Shown: positions 54,748 through 55,133, counted from the whole stretch's first letter. The stretch is DNA of 61,259 nucleotides, filler included, from Circinaria calcarea (GCA_051942165.1; 4 parts of 4 records of this genome joined end to end with filler, not necessarily neighbours in it), one strand, 5' to 3'. Notes: generated by a model not told the origin, from the letters alone. A program made the numbers and translations.

Positions 54748-54812
54748 AGGCACTTTGCCTCCCATCACCATCTAAGACTACCTTTGGTCTCTCCAAAGGT
54801 GCAAATTTCAAC

Positions 54813-54914
54813 ACGGCCCCGCCGGCCTTAAGACTATTTTCTCTTCAAGATCCCTCGACACGCCCTCTACGAGATACTCTTAACGATCTCCCACCTCCTG
54901 CTGCAATCCACTAA
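54813..54914 (+). promoter_or_regulatory. Non-AUG (ACG) upstream ORF in the ODC leader
   Basis: TTCAAC-ACG-G strong start context; encodes (M)APPALRLFSLQDPSTRPLRDTLNDLPPPAAIH*. Non-AUG uORFs are known upstream of ODC homologs. Confidence 0.65.
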
Positions 54915-55133
54915 TCAGCCTTGCCTCGTCCCGATCGACACCCCTCTAACAACTCCCCTGATATCTCCAATCCCTCAGCTGCCGCATAGGACGTCCCTAG
55001 AGGTTCTTCCTCTTCACGAGGAAGAGTCGAGCCGGCTTCGCGAGATCAGTCTCGGGACTGATCGTTACAGACCACCCTAACAGGACGCTTGGATATTTGG
55101 ACAAACTACAACCTTTTGTTTCTTTGCATTGGT

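Follow-up and report, generated by a model that had tools for sequence, protein, structure and literature searches.

Two overlapping non-AUG reading frames with proline motifs are conserved upstream of ODC in Circinaria calcarea and at orthologous loci

The primary source for the upstream conserved coding region (uCC) in the ODC leaders of Pezizomycotina is reportedly the 2008 PNAS paper of Ivanov, Loughran and Atkins. Here, we analysed 61,259 nt of Circinaria calcarea DNA (GCA_051942165.1; four parts of four records joined with filler; this whole stretch is called the window), in which the 5' leader of ODC carries two overlapping reading frames that lack an AUG: frame A, which begins at an ACG and contains three consecutive proline codons, and frame B, the candidate uCC, which ends in Pro-Pro-stop shortly before the ODC start codon. 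We consider it probable that these are two overlapping non-AUG upstream open reading frames (uORFs; uORF-A and uORF-B), each with a proline stall motif, which repress ODC when polyamines are high. This reading is built on the anatomy of the leader, on the conservation of both frames, of their starts and of their proline motifs, on the constant offset between the frames and on insertions and deletions that stay in frame. It bears out the proposal of the initial annotation that the ODC leader holds an AUG-less, proline-motif uORF system of the polyamine type.

In its passages on fungal leaders, PMC2811004 gives the uCC of Pezizomycota ODC a length of about 100 codons, names AUU, UUG and ACG as non-AUG starts, places a pair of neighbouring prolines close to the C-terminus, where conservation is concentrated, and states that its role had had no direct test. 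So described, it resembles frame B in lacking an AUG, in lying in the ODC 5' leader, in its C-terminal PP and its mainly C-terminal peptide conservation, in having a putative non-AUG start in good context, in being tens of codons long and in ending shortly before the AUG; it differs from the present locus in being a single frame, whereas here an ACG and a PPP peptide lie in a second one. The vertebrate AZIN1 uCC is presented in the relevant parts of PMC9788402 and PMC11550727, following Ivanov et al. (2018), as an element with an AUU start and a PPW-stop end that acts through polyamine inhibition of eIF5A and ribosome queuing. It likewise combines a weak non-AUG start with an eIF5A-dependent proline stall at the end of the frame and repression of the main ORF, but it has no sequence similarity to the fungal element and is of independent origin according to the section of PMC2811004 concerned. 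In contrast to AZIN1, the fungal module spreads an internal PPP and a terminal PP-stop, both stall motifs, over two overlapping frames, and its candidate starts are ACG and AUC/UUG/CUG. Antizyme +1 frameshifting also belongs to the polyamine pathway and, as outlined in portions of PMC1874602 and PMC5009743, has its ORF 2 in the +1 frame of ORF 1. Finally, the overlapping 'tiny' and 'small' uORFs of plant AdoMetDC, as treated in PMC2811004 in passing, likewise place two uORFs in the leader of a polyamine-biosynthesis gene, and start choice together with a peptide-dependent stall sets main-ORF translation there. The plant uORFs, which show no relation in sequence and are far shorter, have AUG starts, whereas the two starts here are non-AUG and 65 nt are shared (54850-54914), frame A (-1 relative to the uCC) overlapping the first 21 uCC codons.

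The uCC is already known as such, and the overlapping ACG/PPP frame with its fixed +1 offset is undescribed in the literature covered. That literature, to which the 2008 primary paper does not belong, yielded neither a second ACG/PPP frame nor a frameshift in fungal ODC leaders; an mBio paper of 2017 cites the 2008 uCC work and contains nothing further. The authors of 2008 may have seen frame A, ACG being among their putative starts, and if their paper already shows it, the window is a well-documented new member of a known system.

Orthologues were obtained by a metagenome scan with ODC exon 1, which gave 57 loci (designated by L-numbers) of 44-67% identity, mostly with 3 kb of upstream DNA. 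There were 38 distinct leaders, and the analysed set consisted of 26 representatives (the window and 25 loci). Ratios of nonsynonymous to synonymous differences (pN/pS) were calculated according to Nei and Gojobori on 17 less redundant sequences, the ODC tree comprised 38 rows, with 20 redundant or short rows left out, and the protein library was scanned by full HMMER (1.84 billion representatives, E≤0.001). RNA was taken from four metatranscriptome runs of a single study, which held 13-18% of the sampled words. The RNA contigs on 54300-55700 come from relatives that are 95-99% identical to the window and not from the same strain; they do not cover 54300-54575 and 54626-54747, and no inference is drawn there. 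The two frames and the candidate start of frame B have the following coordinates.

54813..54914, + strand: uORF-A (frame A), ACG start, 33 codons, PPP at 54891-54899, TAA at 54912-54914
54832..55080, + strand: frame B, the uCC, 82 codons from stop to stop and 76 from AUC 54850, Pro-Pro at 55072-55077, TAA at 55078-55080
54850..54852, + strand: candidate uCC start AUC with A at -3, in frame B, 41 nt before PPP

Frame B ends in ...LGTDRYRPP-TAA, 53 nt before the ODC AUG, and the coordinates that the initial annotation had given for this open +1 frame were right. An ORF with an LPH(R/K) motif that ends in [KRE]PP-stop 39-133 nt before the ODC start was present at 51 of the 57 loci; the six misses comprise three loci with at most 18 nt of upstream sequence (L028, L037 and L044), one with 224 nt (L053) and two distant ones (L056 and L057). 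The C-terminal pattern is ...QLPHRT..(F/Y)(K/R)PP-stop, with the conserved C-terminus reading QLPHRTSLEVLPL.EEES....G...(Y/F)(R/K)PP-stop. The terminal PP-stop occurs in all 25 aligned sequences with synonymous variation of its Pro codons, and the distance from the Q codon to the uCC stop is 105 nt in 20 of the 26 representatives. From QLPH to the stop, pN/pS was 0.67 in frame B as compared with 1.00 and 0.97 out of frame. The HMMER scan with frame B returned 16 matches, 15 of which finish exactly on the uCC C-terminus ..LPH(R/S)..(K/R/E)PP; in these 15 library proteins the PPP region appears in its frame-B reading, as strings like ..TTSHLLL. The 16th match is a repetitive protein of 2084 residues and was set aside, and frame B (82 residues) gave no candidate when proteins were searched by word index. 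No peptide conservation is seen in the N-terminal part of frame B, which the alignment indicates to be an unconstrained +1 reading of the frame-A peptide. Its position in the ODC leader, the concentration of conservation at the C-terminus, the lack of an AUG, the near-cognate codon and the adjacent prolines identify frame B, at the level of sequence, as an orthologue of the known Pezizomycotina ODC uCC, and by analogy a polyamine-dependent repression of ODC is its putative function.

Frame A opens at ACG 54813 in the context CAAC-ACG-G (A at -3, G at +4) and specifies the 33-codon product TAPPALRLFSLQDPSTRPLRDTLNDLPPPAAIH with its proline motifs, exactly as initially annotated. An ACG occupies the homologous place, 72-81 nt before PPP, in all 26 representatives and is in frame A in 25, the ACG-to-PPP length being 72, 75, 78 or 81 nt and hence a multiple of three in these 25. 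The context is A-3/G+4 in 21 of the 26, G-3/G+4 in three (L020-22) and G-3/T+4 in L018; a frame-A ACG with a purine at -3 plus G at +4 is found in 24. Alignment of the peptides gives T-A-....-Q-..-(R)(P)H(R/P)D-I-L-N-(D/N/T)-(L/I)-P-P-P, with the C-terminal motif ..RPHRDILNDLPPP. The PPP residues are invariant (25/25) and their codons vary synonymously, the three positions using four, four and three synonymous codons. Diversity between ACG and PPP was highest at the third codon position of frame A (0.38, 0.34 and 0.53 for the first, second and third positions), and pN/pS was 0.58 in frame A versus 1.19 and 1.18 in the other frames. As in an eIF5A-dependent polyproline stall uORF, a run of at least three conserved prolines thus stands in frame with a weak ACG start. 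Past PPP the frame-A tail shows no conservation (pN/pS 1.18 in that frame) and stops after 0-33 codons at TAA (9 leaders), TGA (15) or TAG (2), with varied codons before the stop; in the window the end is CAC-TAA-T (UAA 54912). In 15 of the 26 leaders the frame-A UGA stop is formed by a frame-B CUU-GAN, which encodes the Leu-Asp/Glu of the conserved LL(E/D) / LFF(D/S). These comparisons argue for frame A as a second conserved coding frame, and uORF-A is predicted to encode a conserved peptide of about 29 residues ending in (D/N)(L/I)PPP, followed by a short unconserved tail.

The RNA of the near relatives agrees with this in small numbers. Variants inside the ACG frame were synonymous in frame A in three of three cases, and in the last 14 frame-B codons, including the stop, three of four variants were synonymous; the uCC stop itself is changed from TAA to TAG in relatives of all four runs. 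Synonymous variants in both frames were the first hint of two coding frames.

The relation between the two frames is fixed. Of the 51 loci with frame B, 41 have the frame-A motif N-x-(L/I/R/K)-PPP in a different frame, and among the ten loci that lack it, three have less than 220 nt of upstream DNA. At each of the 41 loci with both motifs, as well as in the window, frame B is frame A + 1, and this two-frame layout occurs in all four major clades of the ODC tree; the frame break to which the initial annotation drew attention thus recurs among orthologues, and the ACG and both frames are conserved with it. The interval from PPP to the Q codon takes seven lengths (82, 85, 88, 91, 97, 109 and 115 nt), all of which are 1 mod 3 (26/26). 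From the uCC stop to the ODC AUG, in contrast, the spacer is 39-133 nt long, with 21 different lengths among the 26 representatives, and shows no frame preference (mod 3 counts 11/9/6). Since all insertions and deletions between PPP and Q are in frame and the spacer has no such preference, frame B forms one unbroken reading frame between the PPP region and its stop.

A start for frame B is suggested by the codon 41 nt before PPP (p-41), which is ATC, ATT, TTG or CTG in 24 of the 26 representatives, in all 24 with A at -3; the two exceptions, L029 and L038, carry TTG-TTG shifted downstream by one codon, in a poor context with a pyrimidine at -3. The frame-A residue at this place varies (D, H, N, I, V, T), its codon ending in T in the 24, and in 26/26 the open stretch of frame B reaches back to 50 nt or more ahead of PPP. 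The Leu of 'ILN' is encoded by CTC or CTT in all 16 sequences with Leu there (alignment read by eye), and any of the other four Leu codons, CTR or TTR, would place a stop in frame B. Synonymous resampling given the frame-A peptide left frame B open in about 48% and gave a near-cognate codon at p-41 in about 42% of cases per sequence. We regard it as most likely that uORF-B starts 37 nt past the ACG in the +1 frame, at AUC 54850.

One lineage has abandoned this layout. L054 (with L053) has a single ORF of about 89 codons that runs from a good-context ACG, in frame with the uCC, to RPP-stop; its ILN..PPP has decayed to HNIPGPDP, and a deletion has removed the p-41 start region. Because L054/L053 are sister to the dual-frame L046 and L055 (support of 99 in the Shimodaira-Hasegawa-like approximate likelihood ratio test, SH-aLRT) and nested among dual-frame relatives, the fused single-frame form is derived. 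That L054 lost the p-41 start together with ILN..PPP fits a separate start for frame B.

The gene and its leader are organized as follows.

55134..56481, + strand: ODC gene, exon 1 at 55134-55400, intron at 55401-55449 (49 nt), exon 2 at 55450-56481, TAG at 56479-56481
54576..54671, + strand: RNA-supported part of leader exon 1, no ATG; the true 5' end is upstream of 54576
54672..54747, + strand: leader intron of 76 nt with GT..AG ends; contigs of relatives resume exactly at 54748
55081..55133, + strand: spacer from the uCC stop to the ODC AUG, 53 nt in the window

ODC exon 2 matches the Pfam families PF02784 (4.5e-77) and PF00278 (1.7e-25), and the coding intron, with GT..AG ends, is removed in contigs of two runs (joint 55400|55450). 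For the leader, a contig of 520 nt (X1 record 1) follows 54576-54625, continues with 48 diverged letters and is then joined to 54748, and a second contig (X4 record 11) starts at 54748, preceded by eight loose letters that resemble 54664-54671. As these contigs of close relatives resume at 54748, we take the leader intron to be spliced and ACG 54813, which they cover, to lie inside the transcript. A further contig, X2 record 3, was considered as a relative without the ACG region and set aside; its loose end resembles L002-type frame-A sequence, and it is evidence neither way. ATG occurs between 54400 and 55140 only at 54450, 54701 and 55134, and 54701 falls within the leader intron. The spliced leader is thereby ATG-free over 482 nt (RNA-supported, from 54576) and over 605 nt at the maximum, in line with the AUG-less leader of the initial annotation; mononucleotide shuffles led us to expect 4.9 and 6.6 ATGs, respectively, with a probability of finding none of 0.004 and 0.001. 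Among 32 distinct orthologous leaders the genomic ATG-free stretch before ODC had a median of 448 nt. The spacer is the fastest-changing part among the relatives of about 96% identity, with seven variant sites in 53 nt as compared with nine in the 249 nt of the uCC. A TATAAA hexamer at 54664-54669 ends leader exon 1 just before the intron donor and is probably coincidental, since the RNA contigs begin further upstream. A run of about 13 C at 56887-56901 lies about 400 nt 3' of the ODC stop, probably in the 3' flank.

Three elements of the leader were considered at the RNA level.

54779..54801, + strand: hairpin HP1 (ACCUUUGG/CCAAAGGU), ending 11 nt before the ACG, -11.9 kcal/mol
54976..54992, + strand: 17-mer CAGCUGCCGCAUAGGAC (QLPHRT in frame B), nearly invariant across all clades
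55002..55028, + strand: possible hairpin HP2 (UUCUUCCUC/GAGGAAGAG), a pyrimidine run and a purine run inside the uCC

The codons of the 17-mer are CAG (22/22), CTG (23/25, otherwise TTG), CCG (25/25) and CAT (25/25), and this absence of synonymous variation suggests an additional constraint on the RNA. AAC (25/25) and CAA (21/22) are further strongly constrained codons of the leader. The CUG of the 17-mer (UUG in L029 and L038) is in frame B and about 15-19 nt before HP2. A hairpin at such a spacing downstream reportedly favours weak starts (Kozak, 1990), and the CUG could be a third, internal start for the conserved uCC core. HP2 is the hairpin of minimum free energy (MFE) in 28/28 local orthologous segments, with z-scores of -0.59 in the window and of -0.4 to -3.2 among 14 sequences. 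Covariation was not significant (91.9% of cells paired versus 90.7% when shuffled, 30/500; score equal to that of the shuffles), and the register control alone was favourable (55-71% paired when slid). With modest z-scores and a covariation score at shuffle level, HP2 was rejected as a proven structure. HP1 has z=-3.9 against mononucleotide shuffles, and a hairpin of the CCUUUGG/CCAAAGG type, or another hairpin at this place (L020-22), is the MFE structure in about 15 of 25 leaders and absent in about 10; HP1 is therefore partly conserved. A long-range ACGGC-GCCG pairing proposed by RNAalifold, with the GCCG in the 17-mer, consists of four invariant base pairs with no covariation and was dropped.

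The mechanism we propose for the two uORFs is taken from the AZIN1 uCC. Most scanning ribosomes would pass both weak non-AUG starts and reach the ODC AUG. At high polyamine levels, eIF5A-dependent peptide-bond formation would slow at PPP in uORF-A, and elongation or termination would slow at PP-stop in uORF-B, where the stalled 80S ribosome, 53 nt ahead of the ODC AUG, would block scanning to it. The queue behind stalled ribosomes would raise initiation at the upstream weak starts and so reinforce the repression. Whatever their frame, ribosomes would be blocked by an 80S arrested at PPP, so that uORF-A and uORF-B could act as two sensors in series. The spacing of a ribosome queue gave no help: the distances to the PPP P-site, 81 nt from the ACG and 44 nt from the frame-B start, include no clean multiple of about 30 nt.

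Several points weigh against this reading. Translation of both frames, the response to polyamines and eIF5A and the queuing of ribosomes are what we infer from sequence and analogy. The orthologue counts overstate independence, the sequences being phylogenetically related. The start of frame B is argued from conservation, the ACG has the stronger context (that of the frame-B start has A at -3 and C or T at +4), and with a near-cognate codon at p-41 expected in about 42% and an open frame in about 48% of resampled sequences, together with shared ancestry, support for this start is moderate. In frame B, constraint is weak between PPP and QLPH (pN/pS 0.82). A single uCC of about 100 codons, as summarized in PMC2811004, fits the distance from ACG to stop (89 codons + 1 nt) as well as it fits frame B. 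Individual orthologues also depart from the pattern: in L041 the ACG is displaced by 1 nt into frame B with ILNLLPPP still in frame A, which may be genuine or may be an error, the contig being short and of low coverage; the ACG frame of L045 has 15 codons and no PPP; and L026 and L031-33/35 lack the frame-A motif, with unrecognised introns as a possible cause.

The initial annotation had noted that skipping one base would fuse the two frames, which is true of the sequence, and had offered either a 1-nt indel or assembly error in one long uORF or a +1 recoding step as the cause. We attach practically no probability to the error. L054 demonstrates that a single-frame version can exist, but X1 record 1 (54748-55169) and X4 record 11 (54748-54955), two independent RNA contigs from two runs, cross 54826-54834 with no gap, and the identical offset recurs at all 41 orthologous loci from many assemblies. 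Unlikely, to a lesser degree, is that the uCC is the only frame translated and that conservation of frame A and of its ACGGC motif reflects a constraint on the RNA, such as a structure or a factor-binding site. Strong nucleotide-level constraint does exist elsewhere in the leader (the 17-mer, AAC and CAA), the invariant ACGGC is paired by RNAalifold with the GCCG of the 17-mer, and the description published in PMC2811004, in the portion dealing with these leaders, mentions one uCC. Such a constraint, however, does not account for variation that falls on the third positions of frame A between ACG and PPP, for an invariant PPP whose codons vary synonymously, for ACG-to-PPP lengths that are multiples of three or for an ACG in optimal initiation context, and the ACGGC pairing amounts to 4 bp without covariation in columns that are all invariant.

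We judge a programmed +1 frameshift very unlikely, in which ribosomes would start at the ACG, read frame A through PPP and shift at the PPP stall or at the frame-A stop to yield one A-B peptide with PP-stop at its end, polyamines or eIF5A setting the shift as in antizyme. Just as improbable in our view is its mechanistic version, in which polyamines would block eIF5A, a fraction of the ribosomes stalled at PPP would shift +1 and the PP-stop arrest of the A-B fusion would shut off ODC; if true, antizyme would be joined by another polyamine-sensing +1 frameshift, this one inside a uORF. Such a shift would agree with the direction of the offset, frame B always being A+1 as in antizyme, with indels between PPP and QLPH that all keep the +1 relation, with the much better context of the ACG than of the frame-B start, and with the single ORF of L054 from ACG to RPP-stop, as expected if a fused product is functional. 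The ACG-to-stop length of about 89 codons is near the '100 codons' quoted in PMC2811004, and many frame-A ORFs end in NNY-UGA (15 of 26, followed by frame-B GAN), reminiscent of the yeast antizyme GCG-UGA-C in the part of PMC5009743 that presents it. NNY-UGA-GAN is, however, also just the -1 reading of the conserved frame-B Leu-(Asp/Glu). The conserved shift codon and fixed stop position of antizyme have no counterpart here: the PPP codons vary freely with no conserved CCC-C or other heptamer that could serve as a slippery site, the frame-A stop varies in position, identity and preceding codon, and the frame-A tail past PPP is unconstrained. In a search for an antizyme-type stimulator, no conserved structure was found right after PPP; HP2 is about 110 nt downstream, with covariation that is not significant. 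The particular shift suggested by the initial annotation, at GCC-TTA-A-GAC (54826-54832), is refuted by 25 orthologues in which selection continues to act on frame A over about 20 further codons, up to PPP. ORF 2 of antizyme is reached only by the shift, whereas frame B has its own conserved near-cognate start, which makes a frameshift unnecessary; conversely, a frameshift leaves unexplained this unneeded p-41 start and the openness of frame B upstream of PPP. The fused form of L054 is derived and has lost the p-41 start, and the portion covered of a review on recoding from 2016, written by the discoverers of the uCC, lists no ODC-leader frameshift.

The reading with two separately started uORFs bears on a central step: polyamine synthesis is gated by ODC, and control of start-site choice by polyamines and eIF5A has its model in the AZIN1 uCC. 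The fungal module appears to consist of two interlocked non-AUG uORFs with different proline stall motifs, conserved across several clades. If this is true, changes that are silent in one frame but disruptive in the other would let each uORF be tested alone, and the module could reveal the interplay of a stall at an internal PPP with one at a terminal PP-stop.

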